From a virus (Duplodnaviria; Heunggongvirae; Uroviricota; Caudoviricetes), in the IMG/VR virus record IMGVR_UViG_651053023_000001, positions 1 through 64,000 of that record: a stretch of 64,000 bases of DNA. One strand, given 5' to 3'. Made by a program: the position numbers and the translations under genes. Each line of letters starts with the position of its first letter. Positions within the stretch are counted from its first letter, which is position 1. This document shows, piece after piece, positions 1,986 through 50,802 of this stretch. Under the pieces are notes generated by a model that did no database searches, was not told the DNA's origin, and saw only the letters and a list, made by a program, of their open reading frames with translations.

Positions 1986-2044
1986 TGAGCCGCGGTTTTT
2001 GTCAACTACGAAGACGAGCCATTACTTAACTCCTTGACATCATT

Positions 2045-2068
2045 GGCGGCCGAAAGGCCGCCTTTTTT
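2045..2068 (+). terminator. rho-independent terminator (GGCGGCCGAAAGGCCGCC + T6)
   Basis: Perfect GC-rich hairpin followed by TTTTTT, immediately 3' of the ant-like copy A stop on the other strand. Confidence 0.6.
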
Positions 2069-2070
2069 AA

Positions 2071-3183
2071 TCATTCAGCCGCCACCGGTTTTAACAAGCC
2101 AGCATCGAGCAGTTTACGCGTCAACCACTGCTGGCCTTTACCCGTTAATTGAGGCGTCAGCCGTATCTGATAGCCATCTTCATCATCCAGCACCACTTCT
2201 TTCACTGTGAAATATCCGGCGTTTATGTACTGCTGAAACGGTACATTTTTACGTCCGCCGGACGCAATCAGGATGCCGTTCTCCCGTAACCAGGCAAACA
2301 GCGCATTTTGCTTAAGTCCAACAACCTTTGCAAAATTCCCAATCAGGATCCCCTTAGCCACTGATACCCGGTCGGCAAAATCGACCTTAGGGGCTGCGGC
2401 CACCAGCTGCTGATTTAGCTGGTGGGCTTTCTGTTCCAGAAGTTGCTTTTGTTCAGCCAGCTCGGCAGCCAGGCGCAGAGCTTCGGGAAGCGTCTGAGGG
2501 ATTGCGACCGGTTGCTGTTCTTTTTGCCGGAAGTAGCTGTCTTCCAGTTTTTCAAAGAATGCCCATGCCTGATCGGTTTCGATCATTTTAGCGTGGCGGG
2601 CTGCGCCGCGTTCCGTCCAGAGAGTGAGGTTTCTGGCGTTCTTACCAACAGAGTTACTAAAAGTAACTCTGTTCTTAAATTCTCTTAATTTTGAACCAGT
2701 TAAAAGAAAGTAGTGTTTACCTTCTTCAAAGCGATCGGAGTTGCAAGACAAATTTTTACGAATATTGCCTTCATCGGTTCCGTACCCCTTAGCAAGAGTT
2801 TCGGTTGTTACGACACGTACTCCCTGCCATTCCAGAACGGGAATTTCATCCGGCTGATTTTGAACAACCACCAGCTCCGATTCCTGAACTGAAGGTGCAT
2901 GAATTTTTTCTGATTTAACGTTAGTTGCTTTCATTCTGTGTGCCTCCTTGCGTGCTTCGGCTGCGACGGTTGCGTAATTCAGATGACCCTGTTCGAGCAG
3001 GTATTCGCGGATATCAGACAACAGGATACGGTGAACCGCGTGTTTGTCCTTTCTCCGGTAAAGTTGTTTGGTGATCATGAAGTAGTTGGCAATAACGCCT
3101 GGTATATCCCTGGTGCTGATACAGGCAGTGTGCTGTTCAATTGCCTCGATCATCTCTTCACGGGTGACTAATGACGTTCTCAT
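2071..3183 (-). CDS. antirepressor-like protein, copy A (ORF6N/Bro-N-like N-terminal region plus KilA-C/ANT C-terminal domain)
   Basis: 370 aa; C-terminal ~150 aa (PQTLPEALRLAAELAEQK...KVDFADRVSVA...GKGQQWLTRKLLDAG) shared with the canonical Ant (47170..48213) and with KilA; preceded by an icd-like ORF overlapping by ATGA. Confidence 0.8.
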   Translation of the reverse strand: MRTSLVTREEMIEAIEQHTACISTRDIPGVIANYFMITKQLYRRKDKHAVHRILLSDIREYLLEQGHLNYATVAAEARKEAHRMKATNVKSEKIHAPSVQESELVVVQNQPDEIPVLEWQGVRVVTTETLAKGYGTDEGNIRKNLSCNSDRFEEGKHYFLLTGSKLREFKNRVTFSNSVGKNARNLTLWTERGAARHAKMIETDQAWAFFEKLEDSYFRQKEQQPVAIPQTLPEALRLAAELAEQKQLLEQKAHQLNQQLVAAAPKVDFADRVSVAKGILIGNFAKVVGLKQNALFAWLRENGILIASGGRKNVPFQQYINAGYFTVKEVVLDDEDGYQIRLTPQLTGKGQQWLTRKLLDAGLLKPVAAE

Positions 3184-3401
3184 AGCCCCTCCTGAGCAGA
3201 AGCGTTAACAGGGAGGCACCAGTAACTGAGAGAATTGCGCAAATCGGTAGAAAAGCGGGCAGAGAAAATACAGGGAGCATCCGGAAGCTGAGAACGTGCC
3301 TCATCTTCTGTTGGTGCGATAACGAAGTGATAGTGACGTTTCTGGCAGGAGTAAAAGCGCCAGATAAATTCAGGGCGTGCGCAAGGATTGGCATTAACCA
3401 T
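3180..3401 (-). CDS. Icd-like small protein, copy A
   Basis: 73-aa ORF MVNANPCARPEFIWRFYSC... overlapping the ant start; same arrangement as icd-ant in the canonical immI copy. Confidence 0.7.
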   Translation of the reverse strand: MVNANPCARPEFIWRFYSCQKRHYHFVIAPTEDEARSQLPDAPCIFSARFSTDLRNSLSYWCLPVNASAQEGL

Positions 3402-3444
3402 AGTTACGGCCTCATGTACAGGTTTAACAACCTGCTACCCGCTG

Positions 3445-3525
3445 CTAAACGGGTGGCAGGACGTGACGGGGTTAGCAGACTGGCGTACATGAAACCAGCA
3501 GGCCGAAGCCTCCCCATCACGCCCC
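3445..3525 (-). ncRNA. c4-like antisense RNA, copy A (approximate bounds)
   Basis: Conserved leader block upstream of icd carrying a 6-nt element (ATGTAC in RNA sense) complementary to GTACAT overlapping the icd ribosome-binding site and to a second GTACAT further upstream. Confidence 0.4.
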
Positions 3526-3702
3526 ACCATAATTCGGGCGTAACGCGGTTTTACGGACATAAAAATACCGCAATATCGGAAATCTGCGGTTGTCCGCATG
3601 TACATTCAGGCTGCTAAACCCGGTCGCAGAATTTGCTACGACGTAGGAACTATAAGCCTGAACAACAGGAAGATCAATAGTCTGGCGTCCAATAGTAGTT
3701 TA

Positions 3703-5120: not shown

Positions 5121-5294
5121 ATCCTACCATTGCGCATAGCCCTATTGATCTCCTTACCGTTCAGGCTTATATTCATGCCGTCGTAGCAAATTCTGCGACC
5201 GGGTTTAGCAGCCTGAATACTTACGCGGACAACCGCAGATATCCGATATTGCGGTATTTTCATGTCCGTATAACCACGTTACGCCCGAATTATG

Positions 5295-5375
5295 GTGGGG
5301 CGTGATGGGGAGGCTTCGGCCTGCTGGTTTCGTAAGTGCCAGTCTGCTAACCCCGTCACGTCCTGCCACCTGTTT
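5295..5375 (+). ncRNA. c4-like antisense RNA, copy B (approximate bounds)
   Basis: Same conserved block as copy A but the 6-nt element is GTAAGT, complementary to ACTTAC at the icd ribosome-binding site (5404..5410) and at 5219..5225. Confidence 0.4.
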
Positions 5376-5420
5376 AGCAGCGGGTCGCAGGTTGTTTTAT
5401 CAACTTACGAGGCCGTAACT

Positions 5421-5642
5421 ATGGTTAATGCCAATCCTTGCGCACGCCCTGAATTTATCTGGCGCTTTTACTCCTGCCAAAAACGTCACTATCACTTCGT
5501 TATTGCACCAACAGAAGATGAGGCCCGCTCTCAGCTTCCTGACGCCCCATGTATTTTCTCTGCCCGCTTTTCTACCGATTCGCGCAATTCTCTCAGTTAC
5601 TGGTGCCTCCCTGTTAACGCTTCTGCTCAGGAGGGGCTATGA
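5421..5642 (+). CDS. Icd-like small protein, copy B
   Basis: 73 aa from ATG 5421 (track ORF 5292..5642 carries an unsupported N-terminal extension); one residue differs from copy A; overlaps the ant start. Confidence 0.7.
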   Translation: MVNANPCARPEFIWRFYSCQKRHYHFVIAPTEDEARSQLPDAPCIFSARFSTDSRNSLSYWCLPVNASAQEGL

Positions 5643-6757
5643 GAACGTCATTAGTCACCCGTGAAGAGATGATCGAGGCAATTGAACAGCACACTGCCTG
5701 TATCAGCACCAGGGATATACCAGGCGTTATTGCCAACTACTTCATGATCACCAAACAACTTTACCGGAGAAAGGACAAACACGCGGTTCACCGTATCCTG
5801 TTGTCTGATATCCGCGAATACCTGCTCGAACAGGGTCATCTGAATTACGCAACCGTCGCAGCCGAAGCACGCAAGGAGGCACACAGAATGAAAGCAACTA
5901 ACGTTAAATCAGAAAAAATTCATGCACCTTCAGTTCAGGAATCGGAGCTGGTGGTTGTTCAAAATCAGCCGGATGAAATTCCCGTTCTGGAATGGCAGGG
6001 AGTGCGTGTAGTGACAACCGAGACTCTTGCTAGAGGGTATGGGACAGAAACAATCCGTATTCGCCAAAATCATCATGAGAACAAAGTACGCTTTGTTGAA
6101 GGGAAGCACTTTTTCAAAGTTGAAGGAGAATCATTGCGCGAGTTGAAGCACAGAGTAGCTTTAAACTACTCTGTAAAAATTGCTCGCAATGTTCGCTCAC
6201 TCACCCTCTGGACAGAACGCGGCGCAGCCCGCCACGCTAAAATGCTCGAAACCGATCAGGCATGGGCATTCTTTGAAAAACTGGAAGACAGCTACTTCCG
6301 GCAAAAAGAACAGCAACCGGTTGCAATCCCCCAGACGCTTCCAGAAGCTCTGCGCCTGGCTGCCGAACTGGCTGAACAAAAGCAGCTTCTGGAACAGAAA
6401 GCCCACCAGCTAAATCAGCAGCTGGTGGCCGCCTCTCCTAAAGTCGATTTTGCCGACCGGGTATCAGTAGCTAAAGGGATCCTGATTGGGAATTTTGCAA
6501 AGGTTGTTGGTCTTAAGCAAAACGCGCTGTTTGCCTGGTTACGGGAGAACGGCATCCTGATAGCGTCCGGTGGACGTAAAAATGTGCCGTTCCAGCAGTA
6601 CATCAATGCGGGATATTTCACGGTGAAAGAAGTGGTGCTGGATGATGAAGATGGCTACCAGATACGGTTGACGCCTCAATTAACGGGTAAAGGCCAGCAG
6701 TGGTTGACGCGTAAACTGCTCGATGCTGGCTTGTTAAAACCGGTGGCGGCTGAATAA
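5639..6757 (+). CDS. antirepressor-like protein, copy B
   Basis: 372 aa; identical to copy A over the first ~131 aa and the C-terminal ANT/KilA-C domain, with a divergent patch between. Confidence 0.8.
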   Translation: MRTSLVTREEMIEAIEQHTACISTRDIPGVIANYFMITKQLYRRKDKHAVHRILLSDIREYLLEQGHLNYATVAAEARKEAHRMKATNVKSEKIHAPSVQESELVVVQNQPDEIPVLEWQGVRVVTTETLARGYGTETIRIRQNHHENKVRFVEGKHFFKVEGESLRELKHRVALNYSVKIARNVRSLTLWTERGAARHAKMLETDQAWAFFEKLEDSYFRQKEQQPVAIPQTLPEALRLAAELAEQKQLLEQKAHQLNQQLVAASPKVDFADRVSVAKGILIGNFAKVVGLKQNALFAWLRENGILIASGGRKNVPFQQYINAGYFTVKEVVLDDEDGYQIRLTPQLTGKGQQWLTRKLLDAGLLKPVAAE

Positions 6758-6764
6758 TGGAAGA

Positions 6765-6790
6765 ATGCCCGGTTGATGCCGGGCATGATT
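6765..6790 (+). terminator. hairpin (ATGCCCGG-ttgat-GCCGGGCAT) after ant copy B; weak terminator
   Basis: Perfect 8-bp stem but poor U-tract. Confidence 0.35.
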
Positions 6791-6904
6791 AAATGTCTCT
6801 TCAGCACATTACCGAAGTTCAATCTTCAACCAAGAAGTGGACTCGCATACGATTATCGCAATAAAATACTTGAAGTTTTATAAACTGTGAGTATCATTAC
6901 CCAT

Positions 6905-7360
6905 ATGAAAACATCCTATTTAACTATATTGGCTTTCCATATTCGCGATTTTCGCGAGAAGCATGGTGTTACTCAATCAGACATTGCATCTGGCCTTGGG
7001 ATAACAAGTGCCGGCTGGGGAAAAATTGAAAATGGTAAGTCCTCTCTCTCTGTAGAGAATATGATGAAATTCTGTAAAATCATTAATATTGATGCAACCA
7101 TACTTCTTGATATTTCCACAAAATCGGCAAAAAACTTAATCAAATGTGGATGGAGTGTATCTTATTCTCCTGTTGAGGATGATAATTTAATAGACGGAAA
7201 AAATATATTTGCTAAAACACATGGAATGAATAACGTTATGAGGAAATTTATAGACGGGAAACTTGGAAGTGTTTTAGACAAAGAATTTGATGATATTATT
7301 ATGAAATATGCAACATTTTATATGGTTGTAGCTAAAAATCTAAGAGATGACTTGATTTAA
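6905..7360 (+). CDS. XRE-family helix-turn-helix protein with C-terminal domain of unknown function
   Basis: HTH signature GVTQSDIASGLGITSAGWGKIENGKSSLSVENMMKF; AT-rich codon usage; start taken at ATG 6905 (track ORF begins at GTG 6887). Confidence 0.6.
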   Translation: MKTSYLTILAFHIRDFREKHGVTQSDIASGLGITSAGWGKIENGKSSLSVENMMKFCKIINIDATILLDISTKSAKNLIKCGWSVSYSPVEDDNLIDGKNIFAKTHGMNNVMRKFIDGKLGSVLDKEFDDIIMKYATFYMVVAKNLRDDLI

Positions 7361-7375
7361 AAATGGAGTGTACAT

Positions 7376-8128
7376 ATGGCATACAGAAAAGACAGCGATC
7401 TTGAATTCCTAGCTAAATGTAGCGACCGTGATCTTGATGATTTAGTTAACCTATTGATTTATGATAACGATGGCAAAAAAAGATGGACTGAAGAGTTATC
7501 TAACAATCGACAATATAAGGAATTTGCACCAAGACATAGCGTATATTGGAGAGAAATTGCTGCTGAAATTCAATGTTATGGTGGAAATACCATAGCAACT
7601 CTCTTGCGTGGTGGTAAAGGGGTCTGCTACAGAGAAATTCTCATTGATGTATGCAATAAGCTAAAGGTTAATTTCAATGCCAAGAGCCGAATAGAGGTTA
7701 TTGAACAAAATCTTCTATTAAAAATTCTCAGCGACTCTCTAGATAACATGTCATCCGAAGATATAAAAGTTTTTGCCATGGAACTTGGATTGGATGAAGT
7801 TACAAGATTTACTCCTGAGGCAGTTCTATCTGCCTTCCAATATATTTTCAGGGCCGGCGGTTTCAGATCTTATCAGGTAACTCTTAAATTTGCGAATCTT
7901 TTACTAAAAATTTTAATTGGACGCGGTTTAACACTCGCAGGTAATCAAATACTCGTAAAAGCATTATCTATTTTAACAGGCCCAATTGGTTGGGCTATAA
8001 CAGCCGCATGGACCATTGTAGATGTGGGAGGAACTGCTTATCGAGTAACAATTCCTGCTGTTATTCAAGTTGCTGTACTAAGGGCGAAAGTCAATAATAA
8101 TATTAAAGACAGCGATATTACCTTGTGA
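7376..8128 (+). CDS. hypothetical 250-aa protein with C-terminal hydrophobic segment; candidate effector of a two-gene accessory cassette
   Basis: ATG with GGAG 7 nt upstream, 15 bp after the HTH gene; hydrophobic stretch LTGPIGWAITAAWTIVDVGG near the C-terminus; AT-rich. Confidence 0.65.
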   Translation: MAYRKDSDLEFLAKCSDRDLDDLVNLLIYDNDGKKRWTEELSNNRQYKEFAPRHSVYWREIAAEIQCYGGNTIATLLRGGKGVCYREILIDVCNKLKVNFNAKSRIEVIEQNLLLKILSDSLDNMSSEDIKVFAMELGLDEVTRFTPEAVLSAFQYIFRAGGFRSYQVTLKFANLLLKILIGRGLTLAGNQILVKALSILTGPIGWAITAAWTIVDVGGTAYRVTIPAVIQVAVLRAKVNNNIKDSDITL

Positions 8129-15756: not shown

Positions 15757-18487
<2,731 letters not shown>

Positions 18488-46637: not shown

Positions 46638-46824
46638 GTATTTTTAAGTCGCGAATGCTATCTTTTCGCATCATATTGACCTTTTAATCGTTCAGGCTTA
46701 TAGTTTCGCCGTCGTAGCAAATTCTGCGACCGGGTTTAGCAGCCTGAATGATTGTGCGGACAGCCGCAGATATCCGATATTGCGGTATTTTTGTGTCCGT
46801 AAAACCGCGTTACGCCCAAATTAT

Positions 46825-46905
46825 GGTGGGGCGTGATGGGGAGGCTTCGGCCTGCTGGTTTCACAATCGCCAGTCTGCTAACCCCGTCACGTCCTGCCAC
46901 CTGTT
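46825..46905 (+). ncRNA. c4: c4 antisense RNA of the canonical immI region (approximate bounds)
   Basis: Conserved leader block with element ACAATC complementary to GATTGT at the icd ribosome-binding site (46933..46939) and at 46750..46756. Confidence 0.45.
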
Positions 46906-49207: not shown

Positions 49208-50053
49208 ATGCTGGCTAAAGTCACTTTCCTGAGCTGTATAACGATGAGCGATTTTACTTTTTCTGGCTATGAATTGGCCTGCTTTGTAACACACTCCGGT
49301 CTATCCCGTAGCGCCGGGCATATCCTGTCGCAATGTGCAAATCTAGCGGCAACAACCAGTGAATACTTCATTCACAAGCCTCACCGCCTGATCGCGGCAG
49401 AAACTGGTTATAGCCAATCAACCGTCGTTCGTGCATTCCGTGAAGCTGTAAACAAAGGAATTCTGTCTGTAGAGATTGTTATCGGCGATCACCGTGAACG
49501 TCGCGCTAACCTGTACCGGTTTACACCATCCTTTTTGGCCTTCGCACAACAAGCCAAAAATGCGCTGATTGAAAGCAAATTAAAGATCTCTTCAGCGGCA
49601 ACCAAGGTTAAAGCTGTTCTCGCTAAGACATTGGCTTTATTTAATTTTTTATCCACACCCCCATGTCAAAATGATACCCCCTCCCCCTGTCAGGATGACG
49701 TGGCAATAAAGAATAAGAAGTCACAAGTTAAAAAAACAGAAAGATCAGTTTCCGGCGGTGCCGGAACGACCAGGCTCAAAAATTTGACTTCCTGGATCGC
49801 TGAGGCAAAAGCAAAGGCTGACAATCTGCGGTTATCCAAAAAACGCGCTCAAAAACATGAGTTCAAGCAGAAAGTAGAGGCGGCAGCGCGGAAATATGCT
49901 TACCTGAAGAACAAGCGTTCTCCTGATATTGGCGGGGTATCAAACTTCGATAATCTGCCGCATTGCATGACGGTAAACGAAGCTCTTAATGCGGTTTTAG
50001 CCAAAAATAAAGATAACGAACAATGGGGTATACCGGCAGGATTCAGAGGGTGA
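49208..50053 (+). CDS. repL: RepL lytic replication initiator
   Basis: 281-aa ORF immediately after kilA, matching the P1 lytic replicon arrangement and size. Confidence 0.85.
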   Translation: MLAKVTFLSCITMSDFTFSGYELACFVTHSGLSRSAGHILSQCANLAATTSEYFIHKPHRLIAAETGYSQSTVVRAFREAVNKGILSVEIVIGDHRERRANLYRFTPSFLAFAQQAKNALIESKLKISSAATKVKAVLAKTLALFNFLSTPPCQNDTPSPCQDDVAIKNKKSQVKKTERSVSGGAGTTRLKNLTSWIAEAKAKADNLRLSKKRAQKHEFKQKVEAAARKYAYLKNKRSPDIGGVSNFDNLPHCMTVNEALNAVLAKNKDNEQWGIPAGFRG

Positions 50054-50103
50054 TAGATTGCTCTAATCTGGAGTCACCTGGCGTTTTCAGTTTGAGGTCG
50101 GAG

Positions 50104-50349
50104 ATGCAATCTGATTTTTTACAGTTAGCGATCGCTTTTGCAGGATATGTTTGTATTGGCTTCTGTGTATACATGATCAGCCGAAAAATGCTTGTCGATA
50201 TCGACCGCAAAGAACAAGCAGAGGAGATCTTAGAATGGATTTTCTTTGGCGCGGTCTGGCCATTAGGGATCATGTTTGCTGCAACATTTCTTCTGATGTG
50301 GATATTCACCCTTCCAGGTGATTTCTATAGAAAAAAAGCCAGACATTGA
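50104..50349 (+). CDS. small membrane protein (rlf-region gene by position)
   Basis: ORF from internal Met of track ORF 50023..50349; two hydrophobic segments. Confidence 0.35.
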   Translation: MQSDFLQLAIAFAGYVCIGFCVYMISRKMLVDIDRKEQAEEILEWIFFGAVWPLGIMFAATFLLMWIFTLPGDFYRKKARH

Positions 50350-50429
50350 TACAATCGTTGCGGGTGCTTGAGGCTATCAGCTTCAGGCATTACCCGAAAA
50401 GCAGATAGAAGAAAGCCCCAGATAACATT

Positions 50430-50500
50430 ACGCGTCCTGCAAGACGCTTAACATTAATCTGAGGCAATATCTATGCTTAGCATACGTAGATTAGCCTCTT
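50430..50500 (-). ncRNA. putative Sok-like antisense RNA (position inferred)
   Basis: Inferred only from hok/mok architecture, where the antitoxin RNA is antisense to the mok start region; not delimited from sequence. Confidence 0.25.
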
Positions 50501-50679
50501 ACCGACCAAAAGGTCAAGGAGTAGCAGGCTATGAAGCAGCAAAAAGCGATGTTAATCGCTCTGATCGTCATCTGTTTAACCGTCATTGTGACGGCACTGG
50601 TAACGAGGAAAGACCTCTGCGAGGTACGAATCCGAACCGCCCAGACGGAGGTCACTGTCTTCACAGCCTACGAATCTGA
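50473..50679 (+). CDS. mok: Mok-like overlapping reading frame
   Basis: 68-aa ORF overlapping nearly all of hok in another frame, as in hok/sok loci. Confidence 0.5.
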   Translation: MLSIRRLASYRPKGQGVAGYEAAKSDVNRSDRHLFNRHCDGTGNEERPLRGTNPNRPDGGHCLHSLRI

Positions 50680-50686
50680 AAGGTAA
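50531..50686 (+). CDS. hok: Hok/Gef-family type I toxin (51 aa); not in the supplied ORF track
   Basis: Translation MKQQKAMLIALIVICLTVIVTALVTRKDLCEVRIRTAQTEVTVFTAYESER matches the Hok pattern (single TM helix, LTRK.LCE.R.R....EV..F.AYES). Confidence 0.85.
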   Translation: MKQQKAMLIALIVICLTVIVTALVTRKDLCEVRIRTAQTEVTVFTAYESER

Positions 50687-50759
50687 GAGACCTGGCGGGG
50701 AGAGATCCTCGCCACTCTTCGTGTGTCAGGTATCCTCAATGCACCCTTTCCTCTCCAAA

Positions 50760-50787
50760 TAAAAAAGCTCCCGAAGGAGCTTTAAAA
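50760..50787. terminator. bidirectional terminator (AAAAAAGCTCC-cgaa-GGAGCTTTAAAA)
   Basis: Perfect stem flanked by A- and T-tracts between hok and the convergent tail-gene block. Confidence 0.6.
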
Positions 50788-50802
50788 TACAAGGGATGAC
50801 TC

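Follow-up and report, generated by a model that had tools for sequence, protein, structure and literature searches.

The window analyzed here, 64,000 nucleotides (nt) of a tailed-phage record in IMG/VR (IMGVR_UViG_651053023_000001, positions 1 to 64,000), carries at about 50328..50787 a hok/mok/sok locus, i.e. a gene for the membrane toxin Hok, an overlapping mok frame and the gene of an antisense RNA, Sok. Judged from its sequence, the locus is very probably an intact and working type I toxin-antitoxin module. By analogy with well-studied relatives, its most likely function is post-segregational killing, which would stabilize the plasmid prophage as a second addiction module beside phd-doc. 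We base this reading on the family membership of the toxin, on recognizable RNA elements, on the covariation of the mRNA fold and on a genomic replacement at this place. In terms of sequence identity, the cassette belongs to the hokD/hokW lineage of lambdoid prophages and occupies the variable region 5 of its host element, a P1-like phage-plasmid. The initial annotation had read the interval 50430-50790 as a Hok/Mok type I toxin locus; matches to Pfam PF01848 and Rfam RF01794, together with the placement of Sok on the opposite strand, bear this out, but its left limit lies too far to the right, as the promoter is found at 50328..50355 and the predicted 5' end of the mRNA at 50362.

Toxin and mok frame

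The coding part of the locus consists of two overlapping open reading frames (ORFs); the Shine-Dalgarno (SD) sequence of hok, AAGGAG, occupies 50516..50521.

50461..50464, + strand: SD of mok, GAGG, 8 nt upstream of the mok ATG (from the sequence)
50473..50679, + strand: mok, 68 codons, overlapping hok out of frame (ATG ORF; PHROG 37205, E=9e-20)
50531..50686, + strand: hok, 51-aa membrane toxin of the HokD/HokW type (ATG ORF, Pfam, PHROG, tblastn, RefSeq)

Hok matches the Pfam profile HOK_GEF (PF01848) over 42 of 42 profile positions with 71.9 bits (cutoff 22, E=3.1e-20), as well as PHROG 251, 'MokW-like host killing' (E=4.6e-31), and according to tblastn it is 90-98% identical to phage HokW and HokD proteins. 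The initial annotation had proposed a 51-codon Hok/Gef toxin and a 68-aa Mok-like frame overlapping it, with alignment to Hok/Gef profiles as a check; the alignment is positive, and the coordinates of both frames proved exact. A PDB sequence search yielded no solved structure with a related sequence. With scores of this size, the matches of Hok, Mok and the mRNA leader are not due to chance.

The mok ATG is located 58 nt upstream of the hok ATG, hence mok is out of frame with hok; the spacing in plasmid R1 is likewise 58 nt. In 933W and in K-12 hokC the two starts are separated by 57 nt, and Mok, as annotated there, extends Hok in frame. Alignment with 933W shows that a single extra base, T50514, accounts for the difference; a one-base indel thereby sets the type of Mok, either an out-of-frame ORF or an in-frame N-terminal extension of Hok. 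As in other members of the family, hok is preceded by an overlapping mok with an SD of its own, to which its translation would, by analogy, be coupled.

The hok mRNA and its conformational switch

The following elements describe the predicted mRNA. The definitions of the regulatory boxes follow those for plasmid R1 (PMC9841398), in which tac (translational activator element) and fbi (fold-back inhibitory element) lock the full-length mRNA, ucb acts as an anti-SD box, the processed form contains tac/ucb and SD/dcb stems, and the nascent RNA forms a tac hairpin.

50328..50355, + strand: hok/mok promoter, TAGAAA, 16-nt spacer, TACAAT, TG extended -10 (promoter scan)
50362..50787, + strand: full-length hok mRNA, about 426 nt, predicted (fold and homologue covariation)
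50362..50373, + strand: tac, GGGUGCUUGAGG (folds; definitions of PMC9841398)
50413..50425, + strand: ucb anti-SD box, AAGCCCCAGAUAA, pairing with the mok SD region (closed form) or with tac (open form)
50494..50498, + strand: dcb, GCCUC, forming a stem with GAGGC at the mok SD
50734..50746, + strand: fbi, CCUCAAUGCACCC, pairing with tac

The start of the mRNA at G50362 is predicted from position 1 of the Rfam model and from GGGTGCTTGAGG, which is conserved in the homologues. Rfam family RF01794, named 'sok', matches over its full length at 50362..50536 (E=5e-24), with 109.7 bits where the gathering score is 59. Because this match is on the + strand and extends just to the hok ATG, the model describes the leader of the hok mRNA, and we rejected the match as evidence for the antisense RNA itself. 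Tac has three alternative partners, namely fbi in the closed form, ucb in the open form and the sequence just downstream in the nascent, metastable form.

In the closed form, the minimum free energy (MFE) fold of 50362..50787 reaches -161 kcal/mol (z=-8.95), with the 5' end paired to the 3' end; tac and fbi contribute 12 pairs, between 50362-50373 and 50734-50746. For an evolutionary view of this fold we collected 46 homologous loci (handles L001 onwards where single ones are named) from Escherichia, Kluyvera, Citrobacter, Photorhabdus, Pantoea and Erwinia, of which 24 were aligned. Across this alignment 87.5% of the cells are paired, as compared to 38-43% when the partners are slid against each other, and 35 pairs are changed on both sides, about 2.5-fold the 10-15 of the slid controls; since it was the window's own sequence that supplied the structure, the share of paired cells is inflated, yet the compensatory counts still exceed the controls. 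None of 500 shuffles reaches the observed values. For tac-fbi, 90.6% of the cells are paired and three pairs are changed on both sides; in alignment columns 4/402 the pair is UA in 15 sequences and CG in 8. The helix between ucb and the mok SD, which characterizes the closed form, contributes six pairs changed on both sides.

The open form, taken from the Rfam structure, is 74% paired, versus 34-45% in slid controls, with 15 doubly changed pairs versus 2-8. The tac/ucb stem (seven pairs) and the GAGGC/GCCUC stem between SD and dcb (five pairs) are essentially invariant in 24/24 sequences and therefore neutral as covariation evidence; the inner pairs of the open-form stems co-vary. The only variable base of tac, U or C, forms a bulge in tac/ucb and co-varies with fbi. 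As modeled from these folds, the mRNA encodes the conformational switch of the hok family. The helix CUCUUAC/GUAAGAG (50496-50503 with 50682-50689) was also considered as ucb/dcb and rejected on the definitions of PMC9841398; it is invariant, and covariation speaks neither for nor against it.

The presumed 3' end of the mRNA lies at a hairpin just beyond the cassette.

50764..50783, both strands: hairpin AAAGCTCC-CGAA-GGAGCTTT, terminator of bplB on the - strand (terminator scan, P1 alignment)

The initial annotation had called this a strong bidirectional terminator. The hairpin is real and scores as a terminator on the - strand, where a T6ATTT tail serves bplB; on the + strand, where it does not score, the stem is followed by only three U, so that the description holds in part. 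It is part of the P1 backbone and not of the imported cassette, and we presume, from its position in the sequence, that it forms the 3' end of the hok mRNA or stabilizes it. Most homologues outside P1 possess their own GC hairpin and T-run just past fbi; 933W has none.

Predicted antisense Sok RNA

Opposite the mok start lies a putative antisense Sok gene with its own promoter and terminator, as is characteristic of the family. Its coordinates are transferred from annotated relatives by alignment: K-12 sokC (16952..17010) starts 9 nt inside mokC, 933W sokW starts 9 nt inside mokW, and the predicted 5' end in the window, 50481, lies 9 nt inside mok as well. The 3' end is placed at 50411 via 933W or at 50405 via K-12.

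50405..50481, - strand: Sok RNA, 71-77 nt, predicted (transfer from K-12 sokC and 933W sokW)
50488..50517, - strand: Sok promoter, -35 TTGACC at 50517..50512, 18-nt spacer, -10 TAATCT at 50493..50488 (read from the sequence)

The position of the promoter fits the transferred 5' end exactly. In the predicted fold of the RNA (z=-5.5), an unpaired 5' tail precedes the long hairpin of the terminator at 50465..50416, and the tail CUUUCUUCU follows. The sequence of Sok is complementary to GAGG, the mok SD, as well as to the first three codons (9 nt) of mok. An Rfam search for Sok on the opposite strand had been suggested in the initial annotation; the search returned RF01794, but on the + strand, and it is homology that places Sok on the - strand.

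A replaced segment between repL and bplB

Over the 3 kb surrounding hok, the window shares 99% identity with 'Punavirus P1' MH422554 and with further P1-like phage-plasmids (megablast). It is largely collinear with MH422554, beginning at the c1/cre end and passing via the tail genes into the par/rep region. On one side the locus is flanked by repL and kilA, the latter with KilA-N and ANT domains (Pfam), on the other by bplB and pmgG on the opposite strand.

Alignment with reference P1 (NC_005856) defines the borders of the replacement: homology stops at 50067, which marks the left junction, and restarts at 50761, which marks the right junction. Between them, 693 bp (50068..50760) with orf81 and hok/sok stand in place of about 1.8 kb with rlfA, rlfB and pmgF; the P1 order rlfA-rlfB-pmgF between repL and bplB is absent from the window. 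The statement in the initial annotation that canonical P1 lacks the cassette is correct at this locus. A megablast comparison with NC_005856 found a single matching place, the rest of P1 not being scanned at the protein level. In a survey of P1-like phage-plasmids, rlfA/rlfB/pmgF constitute variable region 5, and hok is not named (PMC9603915).

50057..50067, + strand: 11-nt core ATTGCTCTAAT, which is retained from the C1 operator Orlf/Op55 (NC_005856 alignment, in which the annotated operator occupies the corresponding place)
50104..50349, + strand: orf81, 81 aa, predicted two-helix membrane protein (PHROG 3772, function unknown; hypothetical protein in RefSeq)

The left breakpoint follows directly after the Orlf/Op55 core. 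Because this core is kept, a C1 site between repL and orf81/hok is possibly still functional. At the right junction lies the A-tract of the hairpin 50764..50783; reference P1 has this hairpin in identical form. Two parts make up the imported DNA: orf81 (50104..50349) and, reaching from the -10 box as far as fbi, the hok cassette itself (50350..50746). The lambdoid hok homology ends at fbi. The matches of orf81 DNA are confined to P1-like phages, and no Pfam family matches its product. The list of ORFs gives a longer frame, 50023..50349 (108 aa), of which PHROG 3772 covers residues 28-108 (E=4e-53); we prefer the shorter start at 50104, which agrees with the PHROG profile and the RefSeq annotation. 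The 3' end of orf81 overlaps the -35 region of the hok promoter, and in RCS47 and SJ46 just the last ~110 bp of orf81 are retained.

Relationship to known hok loci and to phd-doc

The closest relatives outside P1-like elements are hokW/mokW/sokW of phage 933W and the hokD-type loci of lambdoid and Stx prophages (e.g. Rac and Qin), with 87-90% nt identity over 50350..50746; the Hok of the 933W type is 90-94% identical to that of the window. These loci share with the window an 18-nt insertion in the Sok terminator hairpin. Apart from the extra T50514, with its consequences for spacing and for the Mok frame, the window differs from 933W in the -35 region and in all sequence past fbi. The host elements differ as well, a P1-like plasmid prophage here and an integrated lambdoid phage in the case of 933W.

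With hok/mok/sok of plasmid R1 (parB) the window shares the tac/fbi lock, the ucb anti-SD, the SD/dcb hairpin, the nascent tac hairpin, the out-of-frame overlapping mok and a Sok antisense to the mok start region. Unlike in R1, the Hok belongs to the HokD/HokW clade and the 3' terminator is borrowed; at the nucleotide level the two loci are too diverged for a direct match. Killing and stabilization have been demonstrated for R1, whereas the allele of the window is known from sequence.

The toxin of K-12 hokD (relF) is about 92% identical (K-12-type sequences are found in loci L006-L011), and RefSeq calls the P1-borne gene hokD. K-12 hokD has been described as inactivated by a rearrangement, with components of the system missing (PMC12214031). 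A K-12-type truncated homologue in our collection (L011) lacks the leader, whereas the copy in the window has promoter, leader, mok and sok.

The type II system phd-doc of P1 presumably serves the same purpose, to kill cells once the plasmid prophage is lost. This protein-protein system is unrelated to hok/sok and sited elsewhere; phd and doc are carried at 88.1-88.7 kb by MH422554, which has the same hok allele, and are not found within the 64-kb window. Since MH422554 possesses both hok and phd-doc, hok/sok is an addition to phd-doc and not a replacement.

Proposed mechanism

Transcription, processing, killing and stabilization, as predicted by homology to R1, would proceed as follows. A weak promoter would yield a stable mRNA of about 426 nt, in which the 5' tac is locked to the 3' fbi. 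With the ribosome-binding site of mok hidden by ucb, the locked mRNA would be neither translated nor bound by Sok. Slow trimming from the 3' end would then remove fbi, so that tac could move to ucb and the target hairpin of mok SD and dcb could form. In plasmid-bearing cells, the unstable Sok, transcribed from a stronger promoter on the opposite strand, would pair over the SD and start codon of mok; this would block the translation of mok and hence the coupled translation of hok, and the duplex would be degraded. After loss of the plasmid prophage, Sok would decay first and the processed hok mRNA would be translated; the 51-aa Hok would depolarize the inner membrane, and the cell would die.

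A general background in favor of such a role comes from a recent Hok census in a preprint, which reports an enrichment of hok in prophages and on large plasmids and toxicity for 42 of the 45 homologues tested (10.1101/2025.08.07.668861).

Weighing the alternatives

Several results weigh against an addiction module in working order. The toxin scores 46.3 bits with the NCBIfam model NF007279 (Hok family toxin; cutoff 73) and 35.8 bits with the HokA equivalog NF007290 (cutoff 89); it is hence not a member of these models, and the RefSeq name hokD must rest on other evidence. The -10 box of Sok, TAATCT, agrees with the consensus at 3 of 6 positions, which explains why the consensus promoter scan missed the Sok promoter. 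When fbi is removed in silico, tac folds onto the adjacent downstream sequence in a nascent-type hairpin as in R1; in the MFE fold of this truncated RNA a long-range helix persisted and the tac/ucb form was not obtained, so thermodynamic prediction alone does not choose between the forms. The P1-type copies (the window, L003 and L004) have no terminator of their own after fbi, with the bplB hairpin in its stead, and with just three U on the hok strand the formation of the hok 3' end is uncertain. Finally, earlier work cited in the preprint mentioned above found that chromosomal hokA, hokB and hokC could not mediate post-segregational killing.

The last two points would equally suit a cassette that is intact in sequence but inert, silent or non-killing, and hitch-hiking in a recombination hot spot. 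The region is indeed a known variable hot spot (PMC9603915), and relatives already carry phd-doc and par systems. We nevertheless consider such a passenger unlikely: promoters, tac, ucb, dcb, fbi, the SDs and ORFs of both mok and hok and the Sok hairpin are all intact, lesions typical of dead loci (insertion of an IS element, loss of the promoter, loss of sok) are absent, and in PLSDB at least 262 plasmids have the hok allele as against 99 with that of the reference. Improbable, to a higher degree, is a main role in defense or competition, in which Hok would abort phages that shut off host transcription or would exclude rival elements. Pipelines for the detection of defense genes do include Mok/Hok/Sok as a defense system, and older work, as summarized in PMC13047441, reported exclusion of T4 by R1 hok/sok; but a re-test in 2026 found that R1 hok/sok gives no protection against T4 (PMC13047441), PADLOC matches neither Hok nor Mok nor orf81, and the neighbors are replication and tail genes rather than a defense island. 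According to a section title of the preprint, moreover, hok is not enriched near defense systems (10.1101/2025.08.07.668861).

The location of the cassette could also suggest that it is wired into the lytic program of P1, with read-through or convergent antisense transcription unlocking Hok and thereby serving host shut-off or the timing of lysis. The C1-repressed kilA-repL operon is its immediate upstream neighbor, with the core of the C1 operator retained, only a weak hairpin with a T-run (50306..50321) separates repL from hok, and the terminator is common to the convergent late bplB operon. This argument is purely positional, though; elsewhere the same cassette works autonomously, its absence leaves the development of reference P1 normal, and the hok fold is independent of the upstream context. 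We therefore regard this wiring as extremely improbable. Hardly more credible is the related idea that hok has been rewired in P1-like phage-plasmids in particular, by the loss of its own terminator, the sharing of the bplB hairpin and the vicinity of the C1-controlled kilA-repL. If it were true, induction would unlock Hok via read-through from repL or via late antisense transcription across fbi, and Hok would be a phage-timed function for host killing or assistance in lysis in addition to addiction. Post-segregational killing by an intact module remains the reading that we favor.

A candidate TadA editing site

In addition to its control at the RNA level, the toxin gene contains a possible site of mRNA editing.

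50668..50674, + strand: CUACGAA, with Tyr47 (TAC, 50669..50671) followed by G; candidate TadA A-to-I site at A50670 (from the sequence)

In HokB, the corresponding disulfide is required for full toxicity. The other cysteine of the putative pair, Cys30, is encoded in the DNA of the window, and K-12 hokD likewise encodes Cys30 in its DNA and has Tyr47 within TACG, where it can be edited. The motif YTACGAA is kept in all homologues. TadA edits the equivalent Tyr to Cys in hokC, hokD and hokE, and for hokD an editing level of 6% has been reported (PMC5630033, PMC12214031). By analogy, editing of A50670 would recode Tyr47 to Cys and may further tune the toxicity of Hok. Locally, the site is predicted to lie in a 9-nt loop, but with z=0.06 this fold is no better than that of shuffled sequence, and the closed fold of the full-length mRNA has the site in a base pair; as the local hairpin is not statistically distinctive, editing stays a lead. 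A second TACG within hok (50625-50628) is read as GUA-CGA (Val-Arg), where editing would be synonymous and where 933W has G; the repeat UACGAAUC includes this second site and recurs at the Tyr47 site.

Prevalence and annotation

With a query coverage of at least 80%, the repL-orf81-hok arrangement is present in at least 262 PLSDB plasmids, whereas the rlfA-rlfB-pmgF segment of the reference, at the same coverage, is present in 99. Among 5,426 complete E. coli genomes, 234 contain the arrangement. The hok allele is at least 99% identical across hundreds of P1-like plasmids. Textbook P1 therefore carries the minority allele at this place, hok/sok being about 2.6 times more common among sequenced P1-like plasmids. 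Our literature search found no paper that describes hok/sok on P1-like phage-plasmids. In RefSeq the toxin is annotated as hokD and orf81 as hypothetical, while mok and Sok are unannotated; MH422554 labels the toxin 'MokW'. The cassette is thus an ordinary, already annotated member of a thoroughly studied family and the majority allele of the sequenced P1-like plasmids.

The present analysis adds mok, Sok and the mRNA boundaries to an annotation that in RefSeq marks the coding sequence of the toxin only; the understanding of hok/sok itself is unchanged, and the importance of the locus is modest. P1-like phage-plasmids spread extended-spectrum beta-lactamase and other resistance genes, so many such plasmids may carry two addiction systems, hok/sok and phd-doc. 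Two independent systems would bear on the persistence of these plasmids and on curing strategies.

Fragments of hok with 98-100% aa identity also occur in a 275-bp contig of Acinetobacter idrijaensis (L012), in a 431-bp contig of Xanthomonas pisi (L024) and in a metagenome-assembled genome (L048). On these short non-enterobacterial contigs they look like contamination.

Other features of the window

Four segments of the window have no megablast match to MH422554: 6742-8205, 30902-34009, 58664-60247 and 61702-63523. They include genes for proteins with a helix-turn-helix motif and with DUF3944 (6887-8128), a part of the tail fiber region and the region of the plasmid replicon. Probably these segments represent further variable regions already known from P1-like plasmids.

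The resident immI region comprises C4 at 46819-46904 and a1b1 at 46698-46750. Two extra, diverged immunity modules are located at 2039-3680 on the - strand and at 5142-6789 on the + strand.

3449-3534, - strand, and 5288-5373, + strand: extra C4 RNA
3603-3655, - strand, and 5167-5219, + strand: extra a1b1 targets

Each extra module consists of a C4 RNA, a1b1 targets, an Icd-like ORF and an antirepressor with ORF6N and ANT domains (370 and 372 aa). Together they form a 1.6-kb inverted repeat (93% complementary) that flanks mat, and their identity to the resident immI is only 83-86%. With at least 80% query coverage, only three PLSDB records show both extra modules in this arrangement; a single extra copy is present in many more.

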